Numbered from the stretch's first letter, positions 2 to 32,477 are shown. The stretch: 64,000 nt of DNA from Rhizobium sp. Q54 (GCA_945904955.1 CAMDPO010000008.1:3177-67176); one strand, 5' to 3'. Made by a program: numbers and translations. The notes: generated from the letters alone by a model not told the origin.

Positions 2-481
2 TGCGCTTGGCGCGCAGGGCGCCGCCTGGCGCTGCACGGCACGCCCGTGGCGGGCGGGACGCTGCTTCTTCTGTGTGCAGACGACGACGAGATCGACATC
101 GCGCGCTGGTTGCTCGAACGCGGCGCCGACGCGAATGCACCGGCGGCCATCGATAGCGAGGGCTTCGGCGGCCACACGGCGCTGTACGGGTGCTTGGTGT
201 CGCAGCCGTATCGCAACGGGCGCACCGACCTTGGCATGGCGCGGCTATTGCTCGATCACGGCGCCAGGGTCGATGTGCGCGCCAACCTGCGCAAGCGCTT
301 GCGGTTCGTCGACGGCGAGACGATGCACGTCTACCGCGGCGTCACACCAGAGGCGTGGGGCCGGGCGTTTCATGACCAGGACTGGGTCAATCCAGCCGTG
401 ATGCAGCTCCTCGCGGAGCGCCGCTCGTGGCGACGTGCTAGCGTTGCCTGGTCGGCGCACAGGGGACGATCCCGATGCTGA
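2..481 (+). CDS. ankyrin-repeat protein (5'-partial; runs off the window start)
   Basis: The frame is open from nt 2. The translation has ankyrin-like motifs (HGTPVAGG, GHTALYGCL, LLLDHGARVDV). Its stop overlaps the next gene's ATG (ATGCTGA). Confidence 0.55.
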   Translation, partial: CAWRAGRRLALHGTPVAGGTLLLLCADDDEIDIARWLLERGADANAPAAIDSEGFGGHTALYGCLVSQPYRNGRTDLGMARLLLDHGARVDVRANLRKRLRFVDGETMHVYRGVTPEAWGRAFHDQDWVNPAVMQLLAERRSWRRASVAWSAHRGRSRC

Positions 482-2439
482 CCAGGCATAGGTTCTTGCA
501 GATTTGCGGCGGCGCAGTCGCCGGGCCGTTGCTGGGCGCGGGCGGCGCCGCATGGGCGCAAGCGATTCCGGCGGGCGCCTTCAATGTGCGCGACTTCGGC
601 GCACGCGGGGATGGCCTTGCCAACGACAGTCCCGGCATCAATGCAGCGCTCCAAGCGGCGCAGGCGAAGGGCGAAGGCGGTACCGTGTTCCTGCCCGCCG
701 GCCGCTACGTGCTGCGCGGCGTGACCCAGGCGCGGCCGCGACCCATCTACACCCGCGTCGAGGACGGCATCGACCTGACGCGGGTAGCGCCGCAGGTGCG
801 CGCCCACGTCTTCCTCACCGGCCTATCGCGCCTCTCCCTGATCGGCGAGCGCGGCACTGTTCTGGTGTTGCGCGACGCTACCGCGTGCGGCATCTACCTC
901 GAGCGCTGCACCGACGTCGTGGTCCGCGACGTCACTCTCGACTTCGAGCCCCTGCCCTTTTCCCAGGGCACCGTGGTGGCGATCGACGCCAGCAATCGCA
1001 CCTTCGACTGGAAGGTCGATACCGGCTACCTGGAACCGCCGCAGGGGTACCTGGCGCTGGCGTTCGAGCCGGTCGGCGACACCAGCCGCGGTCTCGGCAC
1101 GGGTTCGGTCTTCCAGGCAGACGGCTCGCTCAAGGGGAGCGCCGGCGCCTCGGGCGACCTGCCGTTGGAACGCATGCAGGAACGGGGCGGCGGCATCTAC
1201 CGCACCGTGAGCGTCGCGCCACTCGGCGCCCTAGCGGCCGGCGATCGATTCGCCTGGCCGGCGCGGCCGCCCAACGGTGGCAGCGCCGTGGCGCTTTCGC
1301 TCAGCAGCCGCTGCCGCATGGAGAACGTCACGGTGCACAGCTCGCCGGCGACCGCGTTCGTCGCCAACGACTGCGAGGCGATCACGTTTCGCGGCTGCGT
1401 CGTCGAGCGGCCGGCCGGCAGCGACCGGCTGTTCGCCGCGAACGGTGGCGCGGTGCTGGTCAAAGGCAACGGGGGCGGACCGACCATCGAGCGCTGCCGC
1501 TTTCAGCACGTCGGCGACGACGCGGTGAACATCACGCAAACCGGACAGCGCCTGCTCGCCGTGGTGAGCCCGACCGAGCTCATCGTCGACTTCGACGCGT
1601 CGCAGCTGTTCCGCGAAGGCAATCGCATCGCCGTGCTGTCCCAGGCCAACGGACGCACGCGCGGCGACGCGCGCGTGCGCGAGGCGGCGCTCGTGCGCTT
1701 CCGCGACGGCCGCCTGGCGCGGCGCCTCGTGCTCGACCGCGCCGTCAACAGCCTGGTGGCGGTCGACGACCTCGACCTGCCCGAGATTCCGCCGTTGGCC
1801 GAGGGGCGTGACCGCACGACTCCTTTGGCGAAGCGGCCCGACATCGTCGCGGATGTGGACCTGCTGGGCAGCGGCTTCGTTGTCCGCGACACGACGTTCG
1901 CGAATCATCGCGCCAGCGGTATTCGGACCTGCGCGAGCGATGGGACGATCGAGAACTGCCGGTTCACGAACCTCGCCGGCCACGGCGTCCAGATCGGCAT
2001 GGATCTGAGCTGGCCCGAGGTCTACCACCCGCAACGCCTGACCCTGCGGCGCAACACCTTCACCGGGATCGCCAACGGCGCCAACGTGTGGCTGCGCACG
2101 TTGCTCGGCAACGGCGAACAGGCGGAGGGCTTGGCGAACCAGAACGTCACGATCGAGGACAACACGTTCACAGGTTTCGGCGCGCGCGCGGGCGGGATCG
2201 CCATCGCGGCGGTGACGGTGAGCAACGGTCAGGACGTACGCATTCGTGGCAACACCTTCGGGGCGCCCGACCCGGCACAAACGCCGGCGCCGCGCGCGGT
2301 GCGCGTGGACTTCGCCCGGGATGTGGTCGTGGAGAACAACGCGGCGGTGCAGCGCGATCGCACGATCGACCCGTTTCAGGTCACGGCACGGGCCGATCGC
2401 GCCACGGTGCGGGTGCAGCGCAACCGGCTGACGCGCTAG
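475..2439 (+). CDS. secreted right-handed beta-helix protein (pectate-lyase superfamily, Pectate_lyase_3/GH28-like)
   Basis: N-terminal signal peptide with a Tat-like TRHRFLQ motif and an AWA/QA cleavage site. The motif NVRDFGARGDGLANDSPGINAALQAA matches the N-terminal signature of the pectate-lyase superfamily. Later sequence repeats short beta-helix (PbH1-like) segments. Confidence 0.6.
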   Translation: MLTRHRFLQICGGAVAGPLLGAGGAAWAQAIPAGAFNVRDFGARGDGLANDSPGINAALQAAQAKGEGGTVFLPAGRYVLRGVTQARPRPIYTRVEDGIDLTRVAPQVRAHVFLTGLSRLSLIGERGTVLVLRDATACGIYLERCTDVVVRDVTLDFEPLPFSQGTVVAIDASNRTFDWKVDTGYLEPPQGYLALAFEPVGDTSRGLGTGSVFQADGSLKGSAGASGDLPLERMQERGGGIYRTVSVAPLGALAAGDRFAWPARPPNGGSAVALSLSSRCRMENVTVHSSPATAFVANDCEAITFRGCVVERPAGSDRLFAANGGAVLVKGNGGGPTIERCRFQHVGDDAVNITQTGQRLLAVVSPTELIVDFDASQLFREGNRIAVLSQANGRTRGDARVREAALVRFRDGRLARRLVLDRAVNSLVAVDDLDLPEIPPLAEGRDRTTPLAKRPDIVADVDLLGSGFVVRDTTFANHRASGIRTCASDGTIENCRFTNLAGHGVQIGMDLSWPEVYHPQRLTLRRNTFTGIANGANVWLRTLLGNGEQAEGLANQNVTIEDNTFTGFGARAGGIAIAAVTVSNGQDVRIRGNTFGAPDPAQTPAPRAVRVDFARDVVVENNAAVQRDRTIDPFQVTARADRATVRVQRNRLTR

Positions 2440-16950: not shown

Positions 16951-17430
16951 TTAGAGAGCCGCCGCCTTGAGGGCGGGGATCAGCTGGCCGCCGATCTCGG
17001 TCGGCACGGTGGCGATGTTGTCCTCGTCGGACTGGAACACCGTCGCCCACAGCTGCTTGCCGTCCTTGGCGTCGAACAGCTTGAGGTCGAAGCGGAACGC
17101 GTGGCTGCCGGCAGTGACGCCGCCCATCAGCACGTAGCGGACCTTCATAGCGGCGCCGGCTTCTTGCGGCGTCATGGTCTTGGTGGCCACTGCCTCCATC
17201 AGCGCGTCGTCGGCGACGCGGAGCGCGGCGTCCTTACGAAGCACGCTGGAAATCGGCGTCCACTGGGTACCGGCCCAATGGGCGCCTTCTTCATTGACAC
17301 CCGTAAGGATGACGCCAACGGAACGGTCGTTTGCGACCTGGGCTCCCGCCGTCGAAGCGACGAGGGAGAGGAAGAGCGACGCCAGCAATACGCCGACGGT
17401 GCGCCCGAGCTTGATTATGGGATTGCGCAT
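16951..17430 (-). CDS. hypothetical secreted protein
   Basis: Signal peptide (MRNPIIKLGRTVGVLLASLFLSLVASTAGAQ) and high GC3. No family recognised. Confidence 0.4.
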   Translation of the reverse strand: MRNPIIKLGRTVGVLLASLFLSLVASTAGAQVANDRSVGVILTGVNEEGAHWAGTQWTPISSVLRKDAALRVADDALMEAVATKTMTPQEAGAAMKVRYVLMGGVTAGSHAFRFDLKLFDAKDGKQLWATVFQSDEDNIATVPTEIGGQLIPALKAAAL

Positions 17431-17818
17431 GGGCGCGGATGTTCCTGGAGAGCCACCGTTCAAGTCAAGTGCTGGAGTCGGCCGGACGCCGCACGCCTAC
17501 CGCGGCCGCCATCGACGCCGGCGGCGGTTGCTGCCCGGCAGGGATTGCCGCGCGGCAGAGTCTGCCTCCCCTGAGCGCTCGGTAATCCGCTGTATTGACA
17601 CGACTTTTCGTCCGCATCGGGCGGCCTCCTCCTTGCACCCGATCGACGACCGCACAGGCCTGCCCATGGGGATGGGGACCTGCGGCGACGGCTGAGCCCA
17701 GAAGCCGAATTCGCGACGGGACTGCACGCGGCCGCCTAGCCGAGCACAGCCCCTAGACGCCCTGTTCTCGTGATGCCCGTGGAGTCGCCTGCTCCACGTC
17801 GCTCGCGGCGGAGCAGCC

Positions 17819-20800
17819 ATGCCCGGCGTCGGCGTTCTTTTTTCGCGTTTCGGGGGTCAACACATGACGAGCTTGCAATTCACTCACGGCGCCGCGTCCA
17901 GCATCGCCAACGGCATCAGCGGCGGCGGCTACGAGCTCAACGGCCTGCACACCAACAGCGGCGGCAACTATCTGTCGCTCGCGCGCGATCCGCTCCTGTT
18001 CGGACAGGACCAGCTGTCGATGGGCGTGGCGTTCAAGGCCGCGACCGCCGGCAAGGGCGGAACGCTTTTCAAGATTCACACGGCGCTGCAGATCGACATC
18101 GGCAACGACGGTCAGGTCACGTTCAACCTGATGGGCAACAGCGCCGCCGAAAAGGGCGTGATCAAGTCGAGCGGCCTGACGACGGCCGATGGCGGCTGGC
18201 ATCACTTGGCGCTGTCGTACGACGCGGTCGCTGGCGCGATGATCGGCTACGTCGACGGCGTCGCGGTCGGTCAGATCGCGGTGAGCGCGGCGACCAAGGT
18301 TGCCGAAGCGTGGGATCCCACGTTCGGTGATCAGTGGGGCAAGGGTTTCGCCGGCACCATCGATAACCTCGAGATTCACGGAACGCCGCTCACGGCGCCG
18401 CAAGCAGCGGCGCAATACCAGGCGGTCCTGCAACAGCTCGACGTGGCGCCGCCACAGCTGGTGCGCCTGACGTTCGACAACGGCGCCATCGCCGACACCT
18501 CGGGCAACAACCTCACTGTGACGGCAGGCAAGGTCGAGAGCATCAGCGACGGCGCCTACTACCTGAACGGCAAGGCGACCGCCGAGGGCGGCAACCACAT
18601 CGCCCTCGCCCGGCACGCTTCGCTGTTCACGAAGGACGAGTTCACCCTGTCCATCGACTTCAAGTCGGCGGACGCCGGCGTCGGCGGCTCCTTGTTCCGC
18701 ATGCACACGGCCATGCAGGTGGACGTCACCGCAGCCGGCGACGTCTTCATGCGCCTGGTCAAGAACGCGGCAGGGGAAAGCGGTCAGATCAAAGCCGTGG
18801 CGCGCGTCGCCGACGGTGAGTGGCACAATGTGACGGTCAGCTACGACGTGGCGGCCGGCAAGATGACCGGCTACGTCGACGGCGTCGCCTACGGCACGAT
18901 CAACGTGTCGGCGCCGACACTGGCGGCTGCGTTCTGGGACCCGATGGTCGGCAGCCCGTGGGCCGGCGGCTTCCGCGGTTTCGTTGACAACGTCACGATG
19001 ACGGACGCGGCCTTGCCGCCCACCATCAATCCCAAGCCCGTGGCCGGCGCCGACATGGCGCACATGCGCGAGAACACCTCGCTCACCCTGACGGCGGAGA
19101 AGCTGCTCGCCAACGATCATGACCCGCAGGGCCAGGCGTTGAGCATCACCGACGTGAAGATGGCCTCCGGCCAGGGCACGGTGGCGCTGGTCGACGGCAA
19201 TGTGGTGTTCACTCCAAATGCCGACTGGCACGGCGTCGCGACGGTGGAGTACACGCTGCGCGACGCGATGCGCGCCAAGGACACCGGCGTGGTGCGCATC
19301 GAGGTGGCGCCGACCGACGCGGACGCACCCGTCGCTCCGCTGGCCTTCGCGAGCGCCATGACCAGCGGCGAGACGATCATCGTTGGCAGTTCGGCCGAGC
19401 TGCTCGCGGCGCTGCGGGGCGTGCACGGCGGCGAGACGATCCTGCTGCGCTCGGGCGTCGACTACAAGGCGATCGTGACCGGCGTGCCTGCGCATGCAGC
19501 ACAGGTGACAGTCACTTCGCTCGATCCGAACGACCCCGCCACCATCGTCGGCCTCGATCTGCGCGCGGTCACCAACGTCACGTTCTCAAATCTGCGCTTC
19601 GCATTCGAAGGAACGCCGGTCCAGTGGCAGACCGACGTCGTCGTCAGCGGTGGCGACGGCATCCGCTTCGCGCACAACGTCTTCAAGGGCGTTGCCGAGG
19701 GCTACGTGCCGGTCGGCACCAGCACTGCCGAGAGCATGATGTCGGTGACGAACACCAAGAATTTCGTGTTCGAGCACAACGAGGTCAGCAACTTCTTCCA
19801 CGGCATCGGCGTCGGCAAATCGGAAAACGTGATTATCCGCGACAACGACATCCATGAACTGCAGGGCGACGGCCTGCGCTTCTCGCAAATGAAGAGCGTG
19901 CTCATCGAGAACAATCGCCTGCACGACTTCCTCGGCTCGGACGCGGCCGTGAACCACAACGACTACATTCAGTTCTGGACCGCGAGCACGACGGCGCCCA
20001 GCACCGACATCGTCATCCGCGGCAATGTCCTCCTGAGCGGCGACTACCAGCCGCAGGCGATCTTCCTCCGCGACGATCAGGGCGATGCGGGCGTGACCGG
20101 TCTGCGCTACCAGCGCGTCACGATCGAGGACAACGTCATCTACAACAGCAACGCCCACGCCATCACGACGATCGGCGCGGACGGCCTCACCATCCGCGGC
20201 AATACGATCCTGGAGCACCCGGCCGGCAGCGCCATCTCGGCCATCAACGTGACCAAGGCCACCGGAGTCGTCGTGTACGACAACGTTGCGCCGCGCATCG
20301 AGGTCGGCGCCACCAACCAGGTCACCCGCCTCGACGGCAACGTCGTGGTGCAGGACGCCTACGCGATCAACCCGGGCTATGTCCCCGACCTGTTCGTCAA
20401 TCCGACGCAAGGCACCGGCATCAGCCTCGACGACCTGTTCGTCCGGCCGGACGGTGCCTTGGTGCGTGCCGACGGCAGCGCGGTGGGCTCGGACCTGCTC
20501 CATCCCGGCGCAACGCCCGACCAACTGACGGCCGTGTTCACCGCTGCCGCGAGCCGCGGCGCCGACGGACGCACCACGCTGTCCTTCGATGCCAGCCACA
20601 CCGCCAACCAGGACGGCTACGTCCACGGCAACCACGCCACGTTCTTGTGGGACTTCGGCGACGGCAAGACCGAAACCGGCCGCTTCGACAGCCACACCTA
20701 CGCCAAGGCCGGCGACTACCAGGTCCTGCTCACGGTCTTCCACAATGACGGCAGCACCGACACCGCCCGGCTGCACGCCAGCATCAAGCCTGAGCTGGCA

Positions 20801-20866
20801 GCGGCGCTGGACTTCGACGACGGGCTGGCCTTCCAGCACCACAGCGTCGGCGAGGTTTGGGGCTAG
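17819..20866 (+). CDS. large multidomain protein: 2-3 LamG/ConA-like domains, a cadherin/Big-like domain, a parallel beta-helix (PbH1 repeats) and a C-terminal PKD domain
   Basis: Residues 1-400 hold repeated LamG-like blocks, each ending ...GYVDGVA.G.I.VSA. A run of PbH1-type repeats follows (IRDNDIHE, IENNRLHDF, IRGNVLL, IEDNVIYN, IRGNTILE). The C-terminus has a PKD motif (WDFGDGKTETGRFDSHTYAKAGDYQVLL). No N-terminal signal peptide is evident. An alternative start lies at 17864. Confidence 0.7.
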   Translation: MPGVGVLFSRFGGQHMTSLQFTHGAASSIANGISGGGYELNGLHTNSGGNYLSLARDPLLFGQDQLSMGVAFKAATAGKGGTLFKIHTALQIDIGNDGQVTFNLMGNSAAEKGVIKSSGLTTADGGWHHLALSYDAVAGAMIGYVDGVAVGQIAVSAATKVAEAWDPTFGDQWGKGFAGTIDNLEIHGTPLTAPQAAAQYQAVLQQLDVAPPQLVRLTFDNGAIADTSGNNLTVTAGKVESISDGAYYLNGKATAEGGNHIALARHASLFTKDEFTLSIDFKSADAGVGGSLFRMHTAMQVDVTAAGDVFMRLVKNAAGESGQIKAVARVADGEWHNVTVSYDVAAGKMTGYVDGVAYGTINVSAPTLAAAFWDPMVGSPWAGGFRGFVDNVTMTDAALPPTINPKPVAGADMAHMRENTSLTLTAEKLLANDHDPQGQALSITDVKMASGQGTVALVDGNVVFTPNADWHGVATVEYTLRDAMRAKDTGVVRIEVAPTDADAPVAPLAFASAMTSGETIIVGSSAELLAALRGVHGGETILLRSGVDYKAIVTGVPAHAAQVTVTSLDPNDPATIVGLDLRAVTNVTFSNLRFAFEGTPVQWQTDVVVSGGDGIRFAHNVFKGVAEGYVPVGTSTAESMMSVTNTKNFVFEHNEVSNFFHGIGVGKSENVIIRDNDIHELQGDGLRFSQMKSVLIENNRLHDFLGSDAAVNHNDYIQFWTASTTAPSTDIVIRGNVLLSGDYQPQAIFLRDDQGDAGVTGLRYQRVTIEDNVIYNSNAHAITTIGADGLTIRGNTILEHPAGSAISAINVTKATGVVVYDNVAPRIEVGATNQVTRLDGNVVVQDAYAINPGYVPDLFVNPTQGTGISLDDLFVRPDGALVRADGSAVGSDLLHPGATPDQLTAVFTAAASRGADGRTTLSFDASHTANQDGYVHGNHATFLWDFGDGKTETGRFDSHTYAKAGDYQVLLTVFHNDGSTDTARLHASIKPELAAALDFDDGLAFQHHSVGEVWG

Positions 20867-20888
20867 ACGCCTACGATCCGTTGGCTGG

Positions 20889-20917
20889 GGCGCGTCAAAG
20901 CGCCGCGCCCCAGCGGC
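20889..20917 (+). terminator. GC-rich hairpin (10-bp perfect stem) after the large gene, with no U-tract
   Basis: The sequence ctggggcgcg-tcaaagcgc-cgcgccccag lies 23 nt after the stop at 20866. Confidence 0.3.
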
Positions 20918-21046
20918 GACGCTCGCTCGACGCAAACCTGTGCATCCCGTGAAATCAGCTTTGTTCCCGTGCCGAGTGCCGCTACGCTTGACCGCAGGGG
21001 GCGTCCCGTGCCGAGCTTCTTGGCGCGCGGAGACACACGGATTTTC

Positions 21047-22555
21047 ATGAACGAGACCACCCCAGCTTCAAACCGCCCGGTAGCGGAGCGGCTGACGAGC
21101 GCGCTCGCCCTGAACCTCGCCAAGGCGTCCGCCTTCCTGGCGACGGTCTCGCTGAACGAGCCGCGCCACGGCAACGGCCGCGCCGCCGCCTGGTTCGTTG
21201 CCGCCCTCGGCGCTAACATCCTGACCGCGGGCGCATATTTCGTCGTCAGCACCCCGGTGGCCAAGTTCTTCGAGGTCTTCGGCTTCTTCCCCTCGCCGGT
21301 TTGGCCGGGCGCAGGCATCGCGCTGTTCGCCGTTCTCGTCGGCGGCTGGACCGTGGCGCCCGGCATCTTCATCGGCTCCTCCGCCGCGAACGCCGTCTTG
21401 TTTGCGGCGCCCGCTGAACCGATGATCCTTATTTCGATCACCAATACGCTAGGACCGATTGTCGGCGGGCTCCTGCTGCGGCGGTCGTTCCCCCCGCGCT
21501 CCCCCGTCTTCTTGCTGGGCGACGTCGGCCGCTTGATGCTCTATGGCGTGCTGGTGCACGCCGGCATCACCGCGCTGGGCGGCACCCTGGCGCAGACTCT
21601 GTTCAACGATACGACCGACGCACCGTTCCGCCTCTTCGCGGCGTGGTTGCTGTCCGATGCGGCCGGAGTCTTGCTGATCGGCGCACCCGCAATCCTGTGG
21701 TGGATCGACCGCCGCGTCATCGAGCGGCAGCATTGGCGCGAGGTCCTGATCGTCTCGGTACTCGCCCTCTCGGTGGGTGGGTCGCGCCTGCTGCTCCCGG
21801 AGGGCTACGAGCTGCCGGCCGGCGTTCCGGTGCTGGTGACGATGTGCTGCGCTTGGCTGGTGGCGCGCTTCTATCCGCGCGACGCCACGACCCTGTTTGC
21901 GCTGGTCCTGGCGCTCGTTCTGGCGGCCAACATCATCAAGCCAGAAGGAATGCTGGCGTTCAGTCCGTCGAACGTGAGCTGGTTCCTCGGCATCGCCGCG
22001 GTCGTCGGCATGCTCAACGTGCTGCTCATCGGCGCCATCATGGAAGAACGCGCCGTGGCGACGCGGCGCATCTCCCAGGACTTGGTCACCGGACTGCCGA
22101 ACCGCGCCAGCTTCCTGTCCGTCGCGGCGCGCGAGCTCGGCCGCGCTCAGACCTATAACCGGCCGCTGTCGCTGATCACCTTCGATATCGACGGCTTCCG
22201 CTCGGTCAATGCGCGTCACGGCAGCATGGTCGGCGACGCGGTGCTCAACGCGATTGCCGGACACGCACGCGCCTGGTTGCGTCCGCTCGACGTGCTGGCG
22301 CGCATCGGCGACGACGAGTTCGCCATCCTGATGGTCGAGACGGATCAGAAGTCCTCGGCGGCGCTCGCCGAGCAGCTGCGCGTCACCATCGCGACGACCC
22401 CCATCGAGATCAACGGTGCCGTCGTCGAAGTCACCGTCAGCATCGGCGTCACCGGCGGTCGCTCCGGCGATACGATCGAGTCCGTGCTCGACCGCGCCAA
22501 CGCCTCGCGCCACATCGCCCAGCAGGCGGGCCGCAACCGAGTCGCCGCCGCCTAG
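21047..22555 (+). CDS. MASE1-domain membrane protein with a C-terminal GGDEF domain (degenerate A-site GDDEF, intact RxxD I-site)
   Basis: N-terminal multi-TM region with MASE1-like VWPGAGIALFAVL. The GGDEF-domain motifs read ...RPLDVLARIGDDEF. Confidence 0.75.
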   Translation: MNETTPASNRPVAERLTSALALNLAKASAFLATVSLNEPRHGNGRAAAWFVAALGANILTAGAYFVVSTPVAKFFEVFGFFPSPVWPGAGIALFAVLVGGWTVAPGIFIGSSAANAVLFAAPAEPMILISITNTLGPIVGGLLLRRSFPPRSPVFLLGDVGRLMLYGVLVHAGITALGGTLAQTLFNDTTDAPFRLFAAWLLSDAAGVLLIGAPAILWWIDRRVIERQHWREVLIVSVLALSVGGSRLLLPEGYELPAGVPVLVTMCCAWLVARFYPRDATTLFALVLALVLAANIIKPEGMLAFSPSNVSWFLGIAAVVGMLNVLLIGAIMEERAVATRRISQDLVTGLPNRASFLSVAARELGRAQTYNRPLSLITFDIDGFRSVNARHGSMVGDAVLNAIAGHARAWLRPLDVLARIGDDEFAILMVETDQKSSAALAEQLRVTIATTPIEINGAVVEVTVSIGVTGGRSGDTIESVLDRANASRHIAQQAGRNRVAAA

Positions 22556-22762
22556 CTCGCGCCACGGCGGGGTGTCGCGTCCAGCGCGCGCCGCCGCTTT
22601 TGTTGACATAGCGAAGTCACCGCTAGGTGGGCACCCACGCCAAGGGTTGCCACGGTCTTGCCCCGCCCCGCCCTCTCGGAACCGGCGACAGTTGGGTCTG
22701 GTAGCGCCCACGTCGCCGGGTTCCGGCGCAGTGGGCCGTTTCGTTCAGCAGGGGAGGTCCCT

Positions 22763-22996
22763 ATGCAGACCGAAGCCGGCAAGCTCGCGGCCTTGGATGC
22801 GGCTCGCAACGCGGCGTGCATCGCCGGGCGTTGGTATGTATTCCCGCCCGAGCAACGACTCCGCCACCTCCGCGTCGGCGACCCCGTGGAGGTGACGTAT
22901 GCGGAGCAGGGCGACCGCCGCAAAGTGGTCGAGATCAAGCTGGTCGGCGAAATAGCGGCCAGCCCGCCACCGGCTATGGACGAGCGCAGCCGCTGA
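22763..22996 (+). CDS. small conserved hypothetical protein (paralog A, 77 aa)
   Basis: An AGGGGAGG ribosome-binding site precedes the ATG. It is clearly homologous to the ORF at 24348..24544 (TExGK..LDA...A....W......L..L.....EVTY....G.RKVVE). High GC3. Confidence 0.5.
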   Translation: MQTEAGKLAALDAARNAACIAGRWYVFPPEQRLRHLRVGDPVEVTYAEQGDRRKVVEIKLVGEIAASPPPAMDERSR

Positions 22997-23606
22997 GGAA
23001 GATCGCCACCGCGGCCTCGACCACCGCTTCGATCTCCGCTGAAGAGGGCACCGGCGGCACGCCGAACAAGGCGCGCTTGTGGAGGTCGCCGGTGCTCATT
23101 TCGAGGAAGATGCGCGCGGCCAACGCGGGGTCGCGCACCTTCAGCTCGCGGCGGCGCTTGGCACCGGCGAGGTAGTCGCCGAGCCGGGCGGCCGCGACCT
23201 GGGGTCCCGCCGCGAACACGCGGCGCCCGAGCTCGGGGAAGCGCCCACTGTCGGCGGCGGCGACGCGAAACAGCGCGATGCTGCCCGGCTCGAGAAAGGC
23301 GGTCGCATACCGCAGGGCGAACGCGCGCAGTACTTCGGCCGGCGGACGGCCCGCTTCGATCGCGGCGTCGAGCGGCGCCAACATGCGCTCGCAGACGCCG
23401 GCGACGATCGCCGCGAACAGACCTTCCTTGTTGCCGAACTGGGCATAGACCGTGGCGCGCGAGCCGCCGGACGCGGCGATCACGTGATCAAGGGTCGCCC
23501 CGGCAAAGCCGTGCTCGAGGAAGGCCGCCGTGGCGGCGGCTAGGATCGCCGCGCGGCGCGCCTCCAGCCGGCCGACACGCACGCCGAGCTGCCCTGTCTT
23601 GCTCAC
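22974..23606 (-). CDS. TetR-family transcriptional regulator
   Basis: N-terminal TetR helix-turn-helix (RRAAILAAATAAFLEHGFAGATLDHVIAASGGSRATVYAQFGNKEGLF). Confidence 0.8.
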   Translation of the reverse strand: MSKTGQLGVRVGRLEARRAAILAAATAAFLEHGFAGATLDHVIAASGGSRATVYAQFGNKEGLFAAIVAGVCERMLAPLDAAIEAGRPPAEVLRAFALRYATAFLEPGSIALFRVAAADSGRFPELGRRVFAAGPQVAAARLGDYLAGAKRRRELKVRDPALAARIFLEMSTGDLHKRALFGVPPVPSSAEIEAVVEAAVAIFLSGCARP

Positions 23607-23614
23607 TCGGTAAG

Positions 23615-23635
23615 TGTACTGTATGGTACAGTACA
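23615..23635. promoter_or_regulatory. perfect 9-3-9 palindrome, candidate TetR operator
   Basis: TGTACTGTA-tgg-TACAGTACA sits in an AT-rich patch between the tetR start (23606) and the divergent gene at 23666. Confidence 0.5.
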
Positions 23636-23665
23636 GTTCAACAAGAAACTGGGAGTTGCGCGCTC

Positions 23666-24142
23666 ATGGCCGAGCCAAGCAATCCGGAGCACCTCGCCGA
23701 CACCGCGGCGCTGCTGCAGACTGAATCGGAGTTCCACCTCAGCTACGACGCGTCGGTGCCGTGCGTCGCGATGACCTGGCGCGGCTATCACACGACGCCG
23801 TCGTTCCACGAGAAGAACGAGCAGGTTCTGGCGATGATCAAGGAGCGCAAGGCGTCGCGCATGCTGTGCGACATCCGCCGCTTCCTGCTCATCAGCGCCG
23901 CCGACCAGGTGTGGTTGAGCGGCGACTGGCTGCCGCGGGCGATGGCGGCGGGATTGCGCCACTGCGCGATCGTCACGCCCGCCTACTTCTTCAACCAAGT
24001 CGCCGTGCGCAACGTCGCCGACCAGATCGACGCGCACGTGCTGCGCGTCGATCATTTCGAGTCGGTGGAGCAGGCGCGTCTGTGGTTGCAGCGCATTCCC
24101 GCAAGTAGAAGCATATCGCGCCTCAACGCGGCACCCGTCTAG
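23666..24142 (+). CDS. hypothetical protein (possibly STAS/SpoIIAA-like fold)
   Basis: 158 aa with high GC3. It is divergent from tetR and shares the operator. No confident family assignment. Confidence 0.45.
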   Translation: MAEPSNPEHLADTAALLQTESEFHLSYDASVPCVAMTWRGYHTTPSFHEKNEQVLAMIKERKASRMLCDIRRFLLISAADQVWLSGDWLPRAMAAGLRHCAIVTPAYFFNQVAVRNVADQIDAHVLRVDHFESVEQARLWLQRIPASRSISRLNAAPV

Positions 24143-24347
24143 GGTCACAGCACCTACACACTGCGGGACGCCGTTTGCTGCGAACGTGAGCGTTGCTGCG
24201 CGTCCGCGCTAGCGCGGCGGTGACCTCACCCGCGCGGTCCTTTGCTACACCCATGTCACGGCCGCGCTCACGCTGGAGGACTGTCCTCGCTGGCGCGGAC
24301 AATCCGGTCCGCGCCATTGCCACACCTGGATCAGGCAGGGAGGCTGG

Positions 24348-24544
24348 CCGTGAAGACAGAACGAGGCAAGGTCACCGGACTGGATGCCACCAAGCGGGCG
24401 ATTCGCATGAACCGCAACTGGTACTACGCGTCCGAACAGGAACTCAAACGCCTGCGTCTGCACGACGAGATCGAGGTCACCTACGTCACCAAGGAAGGCC
24501 GCCGCAAGGTGGTCGAGCTCCTCATCCTCCCCGACGGCGACTAG
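24348..24544 (+). CDS. small conserved hypothetical protein (paralog B, 65 aa, GTG start)
   Basis: Homologous to the ORF at 22763..22996. A GGGAGG ribosome-binding site precedes the GTG. Confidence 0.45.
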
Positions 24545-24768
24545 GCCGGCTTGTGCCGGTCCAAGTCCTTCAAGAACTGCGTCAACAGATCCCGCACCGA
24601 CTGGCCTTGCTGGGCGGCGCCGAAGATCTCTTCGGCGTCGAGCAGGGCGAGATCGACGAGCTCGCGCGCGTCCTCGCGGTTGAGGGCGTTGCGGAACACC
24701 AGCCGCTGGATGAGATGGATCATCAGGAGCAGGGACGTGAAGCCGGGTGCGTCGAACTTCTCTGGCAT
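24541..24768 (-). CDS. hypothetical protein (75 aa)
   Basis: High-GC3 ORF starting MPEKFDAPGF. No family recognised. Confidence 0.3.
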   Translation of the reverse strand: MPEKFDAPGFTSLLLMIHLIQRLVFRNALNREDARELVDLALLDAEEIFGAAQQGQSVRDLLTQFLKDLDRHKPA

Positions 24769-24873
24769 TCTTGTCGGCCTTCTCTGGGCGGCACGTGGGC
24801 GTCGGGTTGACCGGGCGTGGGGCGCTGTCGAGCGCGTTCGCACCACGCGCGTTGGTTTGCTACCTTGGACGCC

Positions 24874-25341
24874 ATGCTACCAAGCACCATTCGCGCCGAG
24901 CCGCTGACCGCCGAGGCGTTTGCGCCGTACGGCGACGTCATCGAGGGCCCCAGCGCACCGGGCCGCGCCGACGACCTTGCTGCCGTGCTGGTCGGCAGCG
25001 ACGGGCGGCCGGGCGTCCACGTGCTGCGCGCCGCGAAGGGCGCGGCGCTGCCCCTGACCGTCGCGCGCATGGAGCGCCATCCGCTCGGCAGCCAGGCGTT
25101 CGTGCCCATGGGCAGCGGGCGTTTCTTCGTCGTGGTGGCGCCGGCCGGCGAGTTCGACCCCACCGCCATCCGCGCCTTCGTCGCCAACGGCCGCCAGGGC
25201 ATCAACTACAAGCCCGGCACCTGGCACCACGGCTTCCTGGCGGCGAACGCGGGCGACGACTTCCTGATGATCGAGCGGGCCGGTCCGGGGGAGAACTGCG
25301 ACTTCGCACACCTCGACAAGCCTTTGCGGGTCACCGGCTAA
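24874..25341 (+). CDS. ureidoglycolate lyase-like cupin protein
   Basis: The motifs ...MERHPLGSQAFVPM...GTWHHG... are typical of the ureidoglycolate lyase/AllA family. I chose the start at MLPSTIRAEP. Confidence 0.55.
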   Translation: MLPSTIRAEPLTAEAFAPYGDVIEGPSAPGRADDLAAVLVGSDGRPGVHVLRAAKGAALPLTVARMERHPLGSQAFVPMGSGRFFVVVAPAGEFDPTAIRAFVANGRQGINYKPGTWHHGFLAANAGDDFLMIERAGPGENCDFAHLDKPLRVTG

Positions 25342-25646: not shown

Positions 25647-27446
25647 CTACGAGGCGTTGCGCAGCAGGCGCTCGGGCGACTCCGGGTGCTGCAGCGACCA
25701 GGCGCGCGCGAACGCGCCGCTGGAGGCGATCAGCACGGACGGTGGTCCCTGCTCGATGATCTTGCCGTCTTCCATGACGATGACGCGATCCATGGCGCGC
25801 AGCGTCGACAGGCGATGCGCGATGGCGATGACCGTGCGTCCCGCCATCAGGCGCCATAACGCGTCCTGCAACGCGAGCTCCGTCTCGGTGTCGAGAGACG
25901 ACGTCGCCTCGTCGAGCACGAGGATGGGAGCGTCCTTGAGGAACGCGCGCCCGACGGCGACGCGCTGCTTCTCGCCGCCCGACAGCTTGACGCCCCTCTC
26001 GCCAACCACGGCGTCGTAGGCGCCCGGCCGCGCCAGGATGAACTCGTGGCAGCCTGCGGCCTTGGCCGCGGCTTCCACCGCGGCATCGTCGGCACCGGGG
26101 CGGCCGTAGCGGATGTTCTCGCGGATCGAGCGGTGGAACAGCTCGGTCGCCTGGGGCACCTCGCCGATCGACTCGGCGATGCTGGCCTGGGTGAGCGCGC
26201 CGATGTCCTGGCCGTCGATGGCAATGCTGCCGCCGGAGATCAGGTGCCGGCGCGTCAGCAGCTTCACCAACGTGCTCTTGCCGGCGCCCGAGCGGCCGAC
26301 CAGGCCGATGCGCTCGCCGGCACGGATGTCGAGATTGAGCGCGTCGAACACGCGGCGGCCGTCGGGATAGACGAACGACACGTCGTCGAAGCGGATGGCG
26401 CCGCCACGCGCCTGCAGCGGCTGGGCGTCGGGCGCGTCCGGGATGTCGTGATCGCGCGCCAGGGCATCGAGCGACTCTTTGAGGTCGCCGACGTGCTCGA
26501 ACATGTTGAGGGCCTCGTCGCCGAGCTGGGCGATCTGCAGGCCGATCTGCACGCCGACCGTAAGAATGGTGACGATGGCGCCGGACGTCATCGTGCCGGC
26601 GACCACCGACTGCAGCGCGACCCACGAGATCGCCGACAGGAAGCCCACCGACAGGAACAGCTGGACGACGCGCATGCCCGTCATGGCCATGCGCACGTCG
26701 CGCGCGCGGTAGTACTCCTCGAGGCTGGCGGGCTCGAGGCCTTCCTGCTCGCGCCGCCACGCGCCGAAGCTGCGCACGACGTCGGCGTTGGAGATGGTGT
26801 CGGCGATGCGCCCGGTGACGCGCGAACGCGCGCGCGCCGTGCGGCCGACAAGGTCGACGACGTGACGCGCCATCGGCACCGTCACCACGACGAACACGGC
26901 GGTGAAGGCGAGGAAAGCCAGCGCATAGTTCAGCGACACGGTGCCGAGCGTGAAGGCGCCGACCGCAGCGAAGGTGCCGATGCGGAAGAACGGCAGCGCC
27001 GATTCGAACAGGCCCGGCATCGACTGGCCGCCGCGGCGAATGCGCTGGTTGATGGCGCCCGCGAAGTTGTCGTTGAAGAAGCGCGTCGACTGGCCGAGCG
27101 TGTGGGCGAACAGCACGCGATCGACGATGACGCGCATCTTCGGCATCGTGAACGCGTTGGCGAACGTGTACATGCGCGTCAGCAGCGGCCCACCGAGCCA
27201 GGCTGCGACGAGCAGCGAGAAGTAGAACGGGATCTCGTCGTAGCGCTCATGGGCGACGACGTCGATGAGCGTGCCGACGGCGAGCGGCGCCAGCGCCTGC
27301 AGGCCGTGCCCGAAGATGGTCAGCGACAGCATCGCGGCCGCGCGCCCCGGCAACTGGCGGACGACCCACCAGGTGAAGGCGAACGGGGTGCGCGGGAAGA
27401 TGGGCTCCCCGGGACGGGACAGCGGCGGACGCAACGACGGACTCAT
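25647..27446 (-). CDS. ABC exporter, fused transmembrane and ATP-binding domains (MsbA-like)
   Basis: A six-TM exporter domain is followed by Walker A (GRSGAGKST), the signature LSGGEKQRVAVGRA and Walker B (ILVLDEATSSLD). Confidence 0.8.
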   Translation of the reverse strand: MSPSLRPPLSRPGEPIFPRTPFAFTWWVVRQLPGRAAAMLSLTIFGHGLQALAPLAVGTLIDVVAHERYDEIPFYFSLLVAAWLGGPLLTRMYTFANAFTMPKMRVIVDRVLFAHTLGQSTRFFNDNFAGAINQRIRRGGQSMPGLFESALPFFRIGTFAAVGAFTLGTVSLNYALAFLAFTAVFVVVTVPMARHVVDLVGRTARARSRVTGRIADTISNADVVRSFGAWRREQEGLEPASLEEYYRARDVRMAMTGMRVVQLFLSVGFLSAISWVALQSVVAGTMTSGAIVTILTVGVQIGLQIAQLGDEALNMFEHVGDLKESLDALARDHDIPDAPDAQPLQARGGAIRFDDVSFVYPDGRRVFDALNLDIRAGERIGLVGRSGAGKSTLVKLLTRRHLISGGSIAIDGQDIGALTQASIAESIGEVPQATELFHRSIRENIRYGRPGADDAAVEAAAKAAGCHEFILARPGAYDAVVGERGVKLSGGEKQRVAVGRAFLKDAPILVLDEATSSLDTETELALQDALWRLMAGRTVIAIAHRLSTLRAMDRVIVMEDGKIIEQGPPSVLIASSGAFARAWSLQHPESPERLLRNAS

Positions 27447-27873
27447 GGGGACGCGGGACCTACTCAACTGAATCGCCCGTCGTCCGTGGAGAGTTCCTCC
27501 GCCGGCTCGCGTTGGGCTGGTTGGATGTAGAACGGCGCGATGCGCGGCCAAGACGCCGTACGTCACGAAGCGATCATATTCCGCGCACGGCGATCCTGCA
27601 TCGACTGACGGCCCCGCTGCCACCGCTGGAAACGGCCATCAACGGGCGTTATCTGGAAATCGTCTCACCCGTCACGCTACGAATCGCACTCTTCCGTTCG
27701 CTCATTCGGGCCGCCTTTGGCGCTTAGCCCGGGAGAAGTCGATACGAAATGTAATGTCGGCAAGCGGCGTCGTCAAGGGGCGTCTGGTGCGGCGACGCGC
27801 GAACGGCCCGTGCCGAGGCACACGGGAAAGGGCGACAAGCGGGCGGTGATCGGCGCGAAACCGGCGAAACCCG

Positions 27874-30175: not shown

Positions 30176-31309
30176 CTAAGCGACGAGGTTCGTTGTCGCG
30201 CGCAGGCGGCGGGCCAGGATGGCAGCGAGGTTGAGGTTGATGCGGGCGAGGACGGCGCTGTCGAGGCCCTTTACGCCGGCGAAGCGCGACGGCTGGATGC
30301 GCAGCATGTCGCCGTTGGAGAGGGCGACGACGTCGGCGGTGCGGCCTTCGCCAAGCAGCATGCTCATCTCGCCGATGAGGTCGCCGGGGCCGAGCGTCGT
30401 GACGATGGTCTTGCGGCCCATGGGGCTGGTCTTCACCACCTGCAGGAAGCCGGTGCGCACCAGGTAGACGTCGCGGCCGCGCGCCGCGGCGTCGATGACC
30501 TGGTCGCCGACGTGGAAGTCGACCTCGGGCACGCCTTCGAGAAAGGCCTCGATGTCCGGGAGCGCGATGCCGCGGAAGAGGTCCATGTTGAGGAGCGAGG
30601 GCGAGGCATCGACCATGTCGTGGGCCGGGAGCGGGCTGGTGTCGATGCCGGCCGGCGCCTCGACGGGGCCCTCGGTGAGCTCGCGGAAGAAGCGCGCCGC
30701 GGCGGGCACGTGGCTCTGGCCGTGCTCGAGCAGGGCCGGCAGCAGACGCGAGCGGATCGAGGCGAGGTGCTCGAGGTCGTGGGCGACCAGGCACATCGGC
30801 ACGCCGATGCCGCCGCGCGGATAGCGGAAGTGCGGGGCATGGCAGCGGAAGCCCAGGCGCTCGTATTGCGAGACGGATTCGGGATCGACGTCGATAAAGA
30901 CGAACCAGGGCGCCGGGTACTTGGCGAGCTCGTCGACGACGGCGCCGATCAGGGCGGCGAACGCGGGCGTGGTCCGGTGGCTGGACAGCACCGCGGCCTT
31001 GCGCACCTGGAAGACGTTCTTCTTCGAGAACGCGTCCGCAACCGGGGTGAGGTTGAGGGTCTGGACGCGTTCGGGATCGACCTCCGCCGCGCCCCACCAG
31101 TCGATGGCGACGGTGCCGACCGGCTCCTTGCCGTCATAGGCGAGCAGGATGGTGGCCTTGGCATCGGCCTTCTCGACGATGCCGCGGGCGGCCGTCATGC
31201 CCGTGATGTCGTAGCCGAGGTCGCCGACCAGGACAGTGTAGCGCAGCTGATAGGCGTCGCGGCGCGCCTCGTCCGTGCGCGCGGCCTCGATCCGGAAGTC
31301 CGCCCCCAT
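30176..31309 (-). CDS. GNAT-fold N-acyltransferase (Acetyltransf_5/OlsB/N-acyl-amino-acid-synthase-like) fused to a C-terminal cyclic-nucleotide-binding domain
   Basis: The N-terminus (AYQLRYTVLVGDLGYD...ILLAYDGKEPVGTVAID...) resembles the FeeM/OlsB/LuxI-like acyltransferase fold. The C-terminal ~120 aa (FRGIALPDIEAFLEGV...GDLIGEMSMLLGEGRTADVVALSNGDMLRI) is a CAP-type cNMP-binding beta-roll. The start ATG at complement 31309 follows a GGGAGAG ribosome-binding site. Confidence 0.65.
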   Translation of the reverse strand: MGADFRIEAARTDEARRDAYQLRYTVLVGDLGYDITGMTAARGIVEKADAKATILLAYDGKEPVGTVAIDWWGAAEVDPERVQTLNLTPVADAFSKKNVFQVRKAAVLSSHRTTPAFAALIGAVVDELAKYPAPWFVFIDVDPESVSQYERLGFRCHAPHFRYPRGGIGVPMCLVAHDLEHLASIRSRLLPALLEHGQSHVPAAARFFRELTEGPVEAPAGIDTSPLPAHDMVDASPSLLNMDLFRGIALPDIEAFLEGVPEVDFHVGDQVIDAAARGRDVYLVRTGFLQVVKTSPMGRKTIVTTLGPGDLIGEMSMLLGEGRTADVVALSNGDMLRIQPSRFAGVKGLDSAVLARINLNLAAILARRLRATTNLVA

Positions 31310-31445
31310 CGACCCACTCTCCCTGGGCCAAACTCTAGCATCTTGGTTTGGCGGCAACAGGGGGGCGAGCGTAGGAAGGGCGCGCGTGCCGCGCGACGCC
31401 CGCGCGCGGTTGTCTTTCGGCCCGTTTGGCCGCATGTAACGCCCC

Positions 31446-32477
31446 ATGAAGTTCCTCGATCAGGCCAAGGTGGCCGTCCGCGCCGGCAAGGGCGGTCCCG
31501 GCGCCATGAGCTTTCGGCGCGAGAAGAATATGGAGTTCGGCGGGCCCCACGGCGGCAACGGGGGGCGCGGCGGCGACGTGTGGGCGGAGGCGTCGGCGGG
31601 GCTCAATACGCTGATCGATTTCCGCTACCAGCAGCACTTCAAGGCGCAGAACGGGGCGCCCGGCGGCGCCTACCTGCGCTCCGGTGCCAACGCCTCGGAC
31701 CTGGTGATGCGGGTGCCGCCCGGCACCGAGATCATCGACGACCTCACCGAAGAGGTGATCGGCGAACTGAACGAGCCGGGCGAGCGCATGCTGCTCGCCA
31801 AGGGCGGCGACGGCGGCATGGGCAACGCCCACTACAAGTCCTCGACCAATCGCGCGCCGCGCAAGACGACGCCGGGCTATCCCGGCGAGGAGCGCGAGCT
31901 GCGCCTGCGCCTGAAGCTGATTGCCGACGCGGGACTGGTCGGGCTGCCCAACGCCGGCAAGTCGACGTTCCTGCGGGCGGTGTCGCGCGCCAAGCCGAAA
32001 GTCGCCGACTATCCGTTCACGACGCTGCATCCGCATCTGGGCGTGGTGCGCGCCGGCGAGCGCGAGTTCGTGCTCGCCGACCTGCCCGGATTGATCGAGG
32101 GCGCCCATGAAGGCGTCGGCCTCGGCGATCGGTTCCTGGGGCACGTCGAGCGCTGCCGCGTGCTGCTGCACCTGGTCGATGCGACCCAGGACGACGTCGC
32201 CCTGGCGTGGCGCACGGTGCGCACGGAACTGAAAGCGTACGGCGCGGGGCTGTCCGAGAAGCCGGAAGTGCTGGCGCTGTCGAAATGCGACGCGCTGTCC
32301 GAGGACGAGGTCAAGAAAAAGCGCATGGCGCTGAAGCGCGCCGCCAAGCACGACGTGCTGCTCCTCTCCGCGGTGAGCGGCACCGGCGTCGAGCAGGCGT
32401 TGCACACCATCTTCGCCATCGTACGGCCCGACCCGAAGGCGGCCGTGGGCAAAGGCGATGAGGCGTGGACGCCGTGA
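31446..32477 (+). CDS. obgE: GTPase ObgE/CgtA
   Basis: N-terminal Obg fold ([27 protein letters not shown]) and G-domain motifs (GLPNAGKST). Confidence 0.9.

Follow-up and report, generated by a model that had tools for sequence, protein, structure and literature searches.

In the present study, we analysed a stretch of 64,000 nucleotides from Rhizobium sp. Q54 (GCA_945904955.1 CAMDPO010000008.1:3177-67176; hereafter, the window, with positions counted from its first letter). Two genes lie next to each other on the plus strand. The first, called the large gene here, encodes a 1000-residue protein that strings together several domains of extracellular type and lacks a signal peptide. The second encodes a MASE1-GGDEF membrane protein of 502 residues. 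The analysis asked what the two proteins probably do, how the large protein would leave the cell, and whether the two genes form a pair. The large gene and its parts are as follows.

17864-20866, plus strand: large gene, encoding a leaderless LamG-LamG-cadherin-like-beta-helix-PKD protein of 1000 residues (open reading frame, Pfam, indel in the orthologue at locus L002, dN/dS)
17960-18403, plus strand: LamG/concanavalin-A-like domain 1 (best Laminin_G_3 stretch, residues 48-195 of the 1015-residue reading)
18491-19018, plus strand: LamG/concanavalin-A-like domain 2, bounds approximate (second Laminin_G_3 stretch and Laminin_G_2, residues 323-360)
19028-19306, plus strand: cadherin-like/Big_9 domain of the tandem-95 type (Cadherin_5 and NF012211)
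19316-20533, plus strand: right-handed parallel beta-helix domain of an uncharacterised family (family search, alignment, AlphaFold2 model, Foldseek)
20543-20770, plus strand: PKD domain (PKD_4, residues 909-984)
20771-20863, plus strand: conserved tail at the C-terminus with predicted disorder, candidate for an uncleaved type I signal (motif common to the subfamily)
20884-20914, plus strand: GC-rich 11-bp hairpin directly 3' of the stop codon, inside the variable segment described below (fold)

The original prediction had given the large protein 1015 residues. The upstream ATG at 17819 was rejected as its start because a 1-nt indel in the 96% identical orthologue (L002) throws it out of frame; the start was therefore placed at ATG 17864, before which stands GGGGG. 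The residue numbers of all Pfam matches refer to the 1015-residue reading. Both open reading frames (ORFs) showed coding-type composition, with a GC content at third codon positions of 0.89 for the large gene and 0.87 for the GGDEF gene in a sequence of 67% GC. The predicted string of LamG, cadherin/Big, beta-helix and PKD domains was confirmed by Pfam, which matched Laminin_G_3 in two stretches (E = 1e-25), Cadherin_5/Big_9 at residues 404-496 (E = 2e-20), Beta_helix in three stretches (E = 2e-15) and PKD at residues 909-984 (E = 2.5e-12). The NCBIfam model NF012211 also matched the cadherin-like domain (E = 1.6e-15, under the model's cutoff). Where two or three LamG domains had been proposed, Pfam and the DNA repeats, which lie 624-627 nt apart, supported two that stem from a tandem duplication, and no third. 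The absence of a hydrophobic signal, also proposed earlier, held at both candidate N-termini, where the best 12-residue Kyte-Doolittle window reached at most 0.97. The LamG fold begins at residue 1 of the protein and likewise in the subfamily relatives.

Several observations concerned the DNA of the large gene. The promoter/terminator scan of the locus returned no sigma-70-type promoter. The hairpin 3' of the stop codon may be a T-less terminator; the 101-nt region around it was not significant against shuffled sequences (z = -0.91). A short hairpin followed by a T-run was seen at 17819-17845 (ATGCCCGGCGTCGGCGT TCTTTTTT), some 20 nt ahead of the true start and overlapping the rejected in-frame ATG, and it could be a terminator or an attenuator-like element of the 5' leader. 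Compared with L002:475-3477, the large gene of the window was mosaic: the DNA of the cadherin, beta-helix and PKD domains was 100% identical, and the two LamG domains showed a dS of 0.23-0.33. This pattern could reflect LamG recombination or a chimeric metagenome assembly.

The relatives of the protein were sought at two levels. With the whole protein, full-length orthologues were found only at 100, 96 and 88% identity, all of them in metagenome contigs, in a search crowded by cadherin-repeat proteins. A whole-protein scan of genome contigs returned the source organism alone (100%, on a 3-kb contig), and all its other matches were PKD-only. A metagenome contig search with the subfamily alignment (PKD pattern FxWDFGDG) gave at least 80 loci, nearly all PKD-only, and allowed no count of co-occurrence. 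With the beta-helix region, an exhaustive HMMER search gave 2,785 representative relatives, 539 of them at E <1e-30. The following counts of N-termini and RTX repeats refer to the best 149 of these 2,785 relatives. The helix starts at most 30 residues from the N-terminus in 108 of the 149, so that a leader sequence has no room in those proteins, whose typical N-terminus reads M..TI.VS...EL..AL..A.GGETILL..GDYG. Just a handful of the best relatives had a Sec-like N-terminus, and at least two GGxGxD motifs, the cores of RTX nonapeptides, occurred in 33 of them. Pfam analysis of ten family members revealed a recurring beta-helix-PKD-LamG string, often followed by HemolysinCabind repeats. The beta-helix followed by PKD was a unit kept in all homologues scanned, and the helix carried the conserved motifs QGDGxRF, HDF and NHxD(Y/M)IQFW. 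As read from these sequences, the large protein is a member of a widespread and uncharacterised family whose proteins characteristically lack a signal peptide.

The AlphaFold2 model of the beta-helix was confident, with a pLDDT of 85.5 and a pTM of 0.88. In a Foldseek search against the PDB, its only matches were the adhesin PfbA and beta-helix proteins active on carbohydrates. The enzymes included the glycoside hydrolase family 136 (GH136) lacto-N-biosidase, alginate lyases (members of polysaccharide lyase family 6, PL6, and 6kfn), chondroitinase B, GH110, a fucoidan lyase and RbmB. PfbA was also the best PDB profile match of the beta-helix alignment (1.8e-6), and PDB sequence searches with the protein or its profile gave just PKD domains and weak generic beta-helix matches. 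By the model, the protein shares its fold class with PL6, GH110, GH136 and GH28-like proteins, within which the family is not assignable. On this basis, the large gene would encode an extracellular glycanase, lyase or epimerase of an uncharacterised right-handed beta-helix family, with LamG and cadherin-like modules that probably tether the enzyme to polysaccharide or to the cell surface.

A nearer subfamily, which consists of P0036, P0038, P0040, P0045 and an 846-residue protein of locus L090, shares the arrangement of the window protein, with LamG at the N-terminus, beta-helix-PKD at the C-terminus and no RTX repeats. The closest non-orthologous relatives (44%) were the tandem paralogues of L090 (526-5242), one of them LamG-Cad-Cad-BH-PKD (the 846-residue protein; BH, beta-helix) and the other LamG-BH-PKD (663 residues). 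Both end in the same C-terminal tail, and they are flanked by an ABC-membrane gene and an exosortase EpsH gene. The beta-helix-PKD-LamG(-RTX) proteins of Rhodobacterales and other Alphaproteobacteria, for example those of Rubellimicrobium aerolatum (P0186), Pseudotabrizicola (P0184) and Dinoroseobacter shibae plasmid pDSHI04 (DSHI_RS20480), have a homologous core with 30-36% identity over about 90% of the region. Like the window protein, they are leaderless and carry LamG modules. The order of domains is permuted, however, since LamG is N-terminal in the window protein and C-terminal in the Rhodobacterales-type proteins; in addition, the window protein has a cadherin-like domain and a subfamily-specific tail and lacks RTX repeats. 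Moreover, those proteins lie in exopolysaccharide (EPS) or capsule loci, whereas the window protein lies in a housekeeping neighbourhood without EPS genes or genes of a type I secretion system (T1SS).

The AlgE-type mannuronan C5-epimerases of Azotobacter are a further point of comparison, for they too are leaderless beta-helix proteins that act on a secreted polysaccharide and are type I exported, being composed of an A-module and RTX R-modules. The AlgE catalytic motif is YG(F/I)DPH(D/E). The window protein has neither this motif nor R-modules, and it shows no full-length homology to the A-module; the profile matches of its beta-helix to AlgE4 and AlgE6 were weak (E of about 7e-4) and spanned about 65 residues, i.e., a few helix turns. 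A second beta-helix protein was observed in the window (475-2439, plus strand, 654 residues; Pect-lyase_RHGA_epim and Beta_helix), adjoining the nitrate assimilation genes. Unlike the large protein, it has a Tat/Sec-like leader (MLTRHRFLQICGG...AWAQA).

The loci of the homologues pointed to a possible export route. P0184 (locus L091, from a Pseudotabrizicola metagenome-assembled genome) and P0186 (locus L092, Rubellimicrobium aerolatum) are 35-36% identical to the large protein over about 90% of beta-helix-PKD and, like it, have no RTX repeats. The P0184 gene lies directly downstream of genes for an ABC transporter, an AprE/HlyD-type fusion protein and OEP, and the P0186 gene directly downstream of genes for an ABC transporter and an AprE/HlyD-type fusion protein. 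The ABC proteins of L091 and L092 exceeded the cutoff of the type_I_sec_PrtD model (TIGR01842), with 581 and 596 bits against 510. Both loci are embedded in EPS genes (Wzy, flippase, glycosyltransferases, exosortase EpsH/EpsI), and plasmid-borne Rhodobacterales homologues also sit in capsule or EPS loci. At the C-terminus of the large protein, a tail of 20-25 residues follows the PKD domain (...LDFDDGLAFQHHSVGEVWG) and is common to P0036, P0038, P0040, P0045 and the 846-residue protein of L090. Its subfamily motif is D-x-(N/D)G(S)L(A/G)F(L/Q)HH..(D/E)xWG, with x(2-5) after HH, and its last 24 residues were predicted to be disordered in a second AlphaFold2 model (pLDDT <50). The uncleaved signal of type I substrates lies within their final 50-60 residues.

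A precedent exists for leaderless export of this kind in rhizobia. In Rhizobium leguminosarum, the PrsDE T1SS secretes PlyA and PlyB, EPS glycanases that lack a leader, are described as non-RTX and carry a cadherin-like domain (PMC3034196, PMC2275737, PMC9298526). The window protein resembles PlyA, PlyB and PlyC, which are extracellular surface-polysaccharide enzymes with a catalytic domain and a cadherin-like (Ra/CHDL) lectin module, in being leaderless and non-RTX, in having a cadherin-like module and in coming from Hyphomicrobiales. It differs in size and layout: the Ply proteins have about 52-56 kDa and a C-terminal cadherin-like domain, and the window protein has 1000 residues, two N-terminal LamG domains, PKD and a distinctive tail. 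A sequence relationship to PlyA/PlyB was not supported, as a tblastn search of plasmids (E <1e-10) gave no Rhizobium match. Type I export was favoured because non-RTX homologues lie behind PrtD-type genes in EPS loci and because of the PlyA/PlyB precedent. Collectively, these results suggested that the large protein is probably a type I exported polysaccharide-active enzyme. Since no transporter for it lies in the window, we infer the route, as we do the substrate. The protein would leave the cell in one step through a T1SS encoded elsewhere in the genome and would for that reason carry no signal peptide, and the T1SS may recognise the conserved unstructured tail after PKD.

Several results weighed against this interpretation. 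The Pfam and motif scans gave no HemolysinCabind match and no GGxGxD motif in the large protein; such repeats are typical of type I substrates without being universal. The earlier claim that RTX repeats are absent was thus borne out, while the accompanying remark that no other obvious C-terminal secretion signal is visible was corrected by the conserved tail, a candidate for such a signal; the tail motif matched no curated signal model in NCBIfam. Family scans of the window ORFs found neither an ABC/membrane-fusion/outer-membrane protein triad nor an EPS locus in the 64 kb. The Foldseek matches were remote (TM scores of 0.4-0.55, 9-15% identity) and fitted several families equally, without singling out one reaction type or substrate.

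Other ways out of the cell were considered. An ABC exporter at 25647-27623 was rejected as the transporter; it is MsbA-like, scored under all T1SS cutoffs, has no fusion-protein partner and is syntenic regardless of the large gene. The type IX, type V, type II and PEP-CTERM routes were also rejected, as they require a leader or a C-terminal transmembrane helix, and the type IX system belongs to another phylum. The absence of RTX repeats, the lack of fit between the tail and any curated model and the exosortase genes that often adjoin relatives would suit export by a non-type-I route (another leaderless pathway, vesicles, lysis or an exosortase-linked process), with the tail as some other sorting or anchoring signal. 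We regard such a route as improbable: the protein has neither the Sec leader nor the C-terminal transmembrane helix that exosortase (PEP-CTERM) substrates require; non-RTX homologues lie directly behind PrtD-type T1SS genes; and the family members with RTX repeats are classical T1SS cargo. The original prediction had left a choice between non-classical export and action inside the cell. The homologues supported the first and pointed to type I, and the family context made the second very unlikely. The missing leader is the sole point for an intracellular protein, against which stand the extracellular-type PKD, cadherin-like and LamG domains, the beta-helix of the type found in carbohydrate-active enzymes, and the family's ties to RTX, T1SS and EPS loci; we consider an intracellular role barely credible. 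Type I export of a polysaccharide-active enzyme is thus the reading carried forward here, and the finding is real and largely explained as a leaderless, T1SS-type, polysaccharide-active multidomain enzyme of a known kind. What is new in the protein is the permuted domain order, the absence of RTX repeats and the subfamily-specific C-terminal tail.

The second gene and its features are as follows.

21047-22555, plus strand: MASE1-GGDEF membrane protein of 502 residues with a non-canonical GGDEF domain (Pfam, NCBIfam, orthologues, dN/dS, synteny)
21293-22012, plus strand: MASE1 integral-membrane sensor domain (PF05231; multiple hydrophobic 19-residue segments)
22280-22321, plus strand: RPLD (the RxxD of the inhibitory site, I-site), five residues, then GDDEF (codons GGC GAC GAC GAG TTC) (orthologue conservation)

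The likeliest start of this gene is ATG 21047, and this start was called in all orthologues. Pfam recognised MASE1 (PF05231) at 44.6 bits against a cutoff of 29.8 and GGDEF at 108 bits, and the protein had eight or more hydrophobic segments. The region of the I-site and the active site (A-site) reads RPLDVLARIGDDEF, in which RxxD stands exactly five residues before GDDEF. Among orthologues of 92, 77, 67 and 53% identity, the first three kept GDDEF, and the 53% orthologue had GGGEF and had also lost the substrate-binding Asn. RPLD was invariant in orthologues from 92 to 29% identity. The degenerate A-site with an intact I-site described in the original prediction was therefore a conserved property, and a sequencing error at the second Gly, which had been raised as a concern, was excluded because the motif is conserved in the orthologues. 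Compared with the active cyclases SadC and 4zmm, four further canonical cyclase positions were changed, DxDHFKxxNDxxGH becoming DIDGFRSVNARHGS; these substitutions (H to G, K to R, D to A and H to S) were kept in orthologues. The dN/dS of the gene was 0.10-0.29, which indicated purifying selection. In both contigs with the 77% orthologue (L176:204-1709 and L177:129-1634), which come from two independent samples, we observed an in-frame stop right after GDDEF (AILMV*TDQK) with the domain conserved downstream; that lineage may have acquired a nonsense mutation recently.

Degenerate GGDEF domains that act as receptors through their I-site are an established class, e.g., PssE and PelD (PMC4125290). 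Like these two and PopA, CdgA and YdaK, the MASE1-GDDEF protein has a non-canonical A-site with RxxD five residues upstream (PMC4125290), and several of those receptors are membrane-anchored, as it is. It differs from them in its N-terminal MASE1 domain and in having no surrounding EPS synthase operon, and its A-site degeneration (GDDEF) is mild compared with that of PssE (DKDDA). These features suggested that the protein is plausibly a non-catalytic receptor for cyclic di-GMP (c-di-GMP), which most likely senses the nucleotide and makes none.

An alternative is an active diguanylate cyclase that tolerates GDDEF and uses RxxD for product inhibition only. Asn and Asp for guanine binding, the Asp that binds metal and the Arg preceding the motif are all still in place. 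A few natural variants at the first Gly (AGDEF, SGDEF) are active, which lends this possibility some support. We nevertheless consider an active enzyme unlikely: it is the second Gly that became Asp in all close orthologues, together with the four substitutions listed above; the 53% orthologue combines GGGEF with loss of the substrate-binding Asn; and the literature searched gave no functional natural GDDEF motif, its occurrences being misspellings of GGDEF.

The relationship between the two genes was assessed by synteny, for which one further feature is needed.

17473-20954, no strand: variable segment carrying the large gene (blastn junctions; absent in L176/L177 and mostly deleted in L083-L086)

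The large gene and the GGDEF gene were adjacent on the same strand in the window, L001, L002/L087 and L088. In L083-L086, where the GGDEF gene is 67% identical, the order was efp-epmA-epmB-...-158aa(-)-GGDEF-ureidoglycolate lyase-ABC-rplU, and the large gene was missing. A remnant of it, namely the upstream intergenic DNA and the last approximately 45 codons with the tail motif, was left in L083, which indicated that the large gene was ancestral there and was then deleted. In L176/L177 (GGDEF gene 77% identical), window positions 17473-20954 were wholly absent, and homology resumed at 20955. No insertion-element ends or target duplications were found around 17473 and 20954 in the repeat search. 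At the loci of family homologues elsewhere (the T1SS/EPS loci scanned), a GGDEF neighbour was absent. The co-occurrence implied by the original prediction was thus limited to the closest relatives, and the GGDEF gene was kept without the large gene in L083-L086 and L176/L177. These results indicated that the adjacency is a matter of lineage history and not an obligate functional pair, and the MASE1-GGDEF gene would be an independent, syntenically conserved resident of its chromosomal slot. One result ran counter to this conclusion: the L083 remnant shows that both genes already stood side by side in a fairly old ancestor, which makes some functional link possible. We rate even a looser regulatory link between them as very unlikely. 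The 170-residue ORF at 16951-17463 (minus strand), which had no Pfam match, was kept upstream of the GGDEF slot in L083 (158 residues) and L176, and the L083 version has an N-terminal hydrophobic stretch.

The pattern of loss also bears on the state of the large gene itself and tells against a working exported enzyme. The gene was lost twice (L083, L176), and the 88% orthologue in a third lineage (L088:7-2478), otherwise collinear, has a TAG codon in frame within its cadherin-like domain (DPQG*ALS, where the window reads DPQGQALS), which is either a pseudogene allele or a metagenome sequencing error. On this evidence, the gene may be one that the cell can do without, or one separated from its partners in secretion and EPS. 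In the extreme case, it would be a decaying relic, parted from its T1SS/EPS locus, no longer exported and heading for loss, and the absence of secretion or EPS genes from the family scans of the window fits this picture as well. The coding sequence argued otherwise. The frame stayed open through 1000 codons in the window as well as in L001, L002 and L003, and the dN/dS against orthologues was 0.19-0.22 in all domains, which indicated purifying selection. T1SS substrates, moreover, often lie distant from their transporter, and PrsDE secretes many unlinked substrates (PMC2275737). A relic is consequently improbable in our judgement, and a maintained exported enzyme remains the preferred interpretation.

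The original prediction had likened the pair to LapA/LapD, with the neighbouring c-di-GMP receptor controlling the display of an adhesin or enzyme on the surface, while stating that the architecture differs. The resemblance lies in the pairing, in the LapA/LapD/LapG system, of a large T1SS-exported surface protein without a leader and an inner-membrane receptor for c-di-GMP whose GGDEF domain is degenerate. The same-strand adjacency in the window and three close relatives (L001, L002 with L087, L088), the old adjacency recorded by the L083 remnant and the common control of matrix components by c-di-GMP are in keeping with such coupling. The components, however, do not match. LapD consists of HAMP, a degenerate GGDEF and a c-di-GMP-binding EAL domain, whereas the window receptor has MASE1 and GGDEF only, without HAMP or EAL, and reached 32 bits with the LapD model NF045673 against a cutoff of 1020. 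The large protein opens with LamG, has no N-terminal retention module and no RTX repeats, and family scans of the window ORFs returned neither a LapG-like protease nor lapEBC-like T1SS genes. The genetics disagreed as well: purifying selection still maintains the GGDEF gene in relatives that have lost or lack the large gene, a GGDEF neighbour is missing beside family homologues, and the 180-nt spacer between the genes contains a hairpin as well as a 5' region of the GGDEF gene that is conserved in its own right. With a pair that is not conserved and a receptor that is not LapD-like, the proposed coupling was not upheld, and we consider LapA/LapD-type control very improbable. We give similarly little credence to the combined proposal that the tail represents a new class of RTX-independent secretion or surface-sorting signal, employed by a subfamily of LamG-beta-helix-PKD matrix enzymes, and that the MASE1-GDDEF protein is a dedicated c-di-GMP receptor which once gated the export or activity of these enzymes.

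The surroundings of the two genes were those of a core chromosome in the family scans. The window carries genes for nitrate/nitrite assimilation, efp, epmA, epmB, rplU, obg, proB, proA and nadD, as well as gpmI, two ctpA-like peptidases, atpHAGD, priA and lpd. A second variable segment was observed at 22556-24887, with a TetR/AefR-like repressor (22974-23606, minus strand), small ORFs and one SpoIIAA-like ORF. The window lineage and L087 have this segment, and L083 and L176 do not; in L176/L177, the missing stretch spans 22552-24887. At 30176-31447 (minus strand), a FeeM-like N-acyl amino acid synthase is fused to a cyclic-nucleotide-binding domain. Its position is kept in L083, and its product may be an acyl-amino-acid signal synthase regulated by cyclic nucleotides.

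These results resolved the apparent paradox of a large extracellular-type protein without a signal peptide: its beta-helix family, large and experimentally untouched, accompanies genes for type I secretion and exopolysaccharides in Alphaproteobacteria. The orthologues of the MASE1-GDDEF protein offer a clear natural case of a GGDEF domain that is both conserved and mildly degenerate, and a candidate c-di-GMP receptor. What interest remains attaches to the beta-helix family, which is uncharacterised, and to the possible RTX-free secretion tail. If characterised, the family could yield new polysaccharide depolymerases or epimerases and a compact RTX-free secretion tag.

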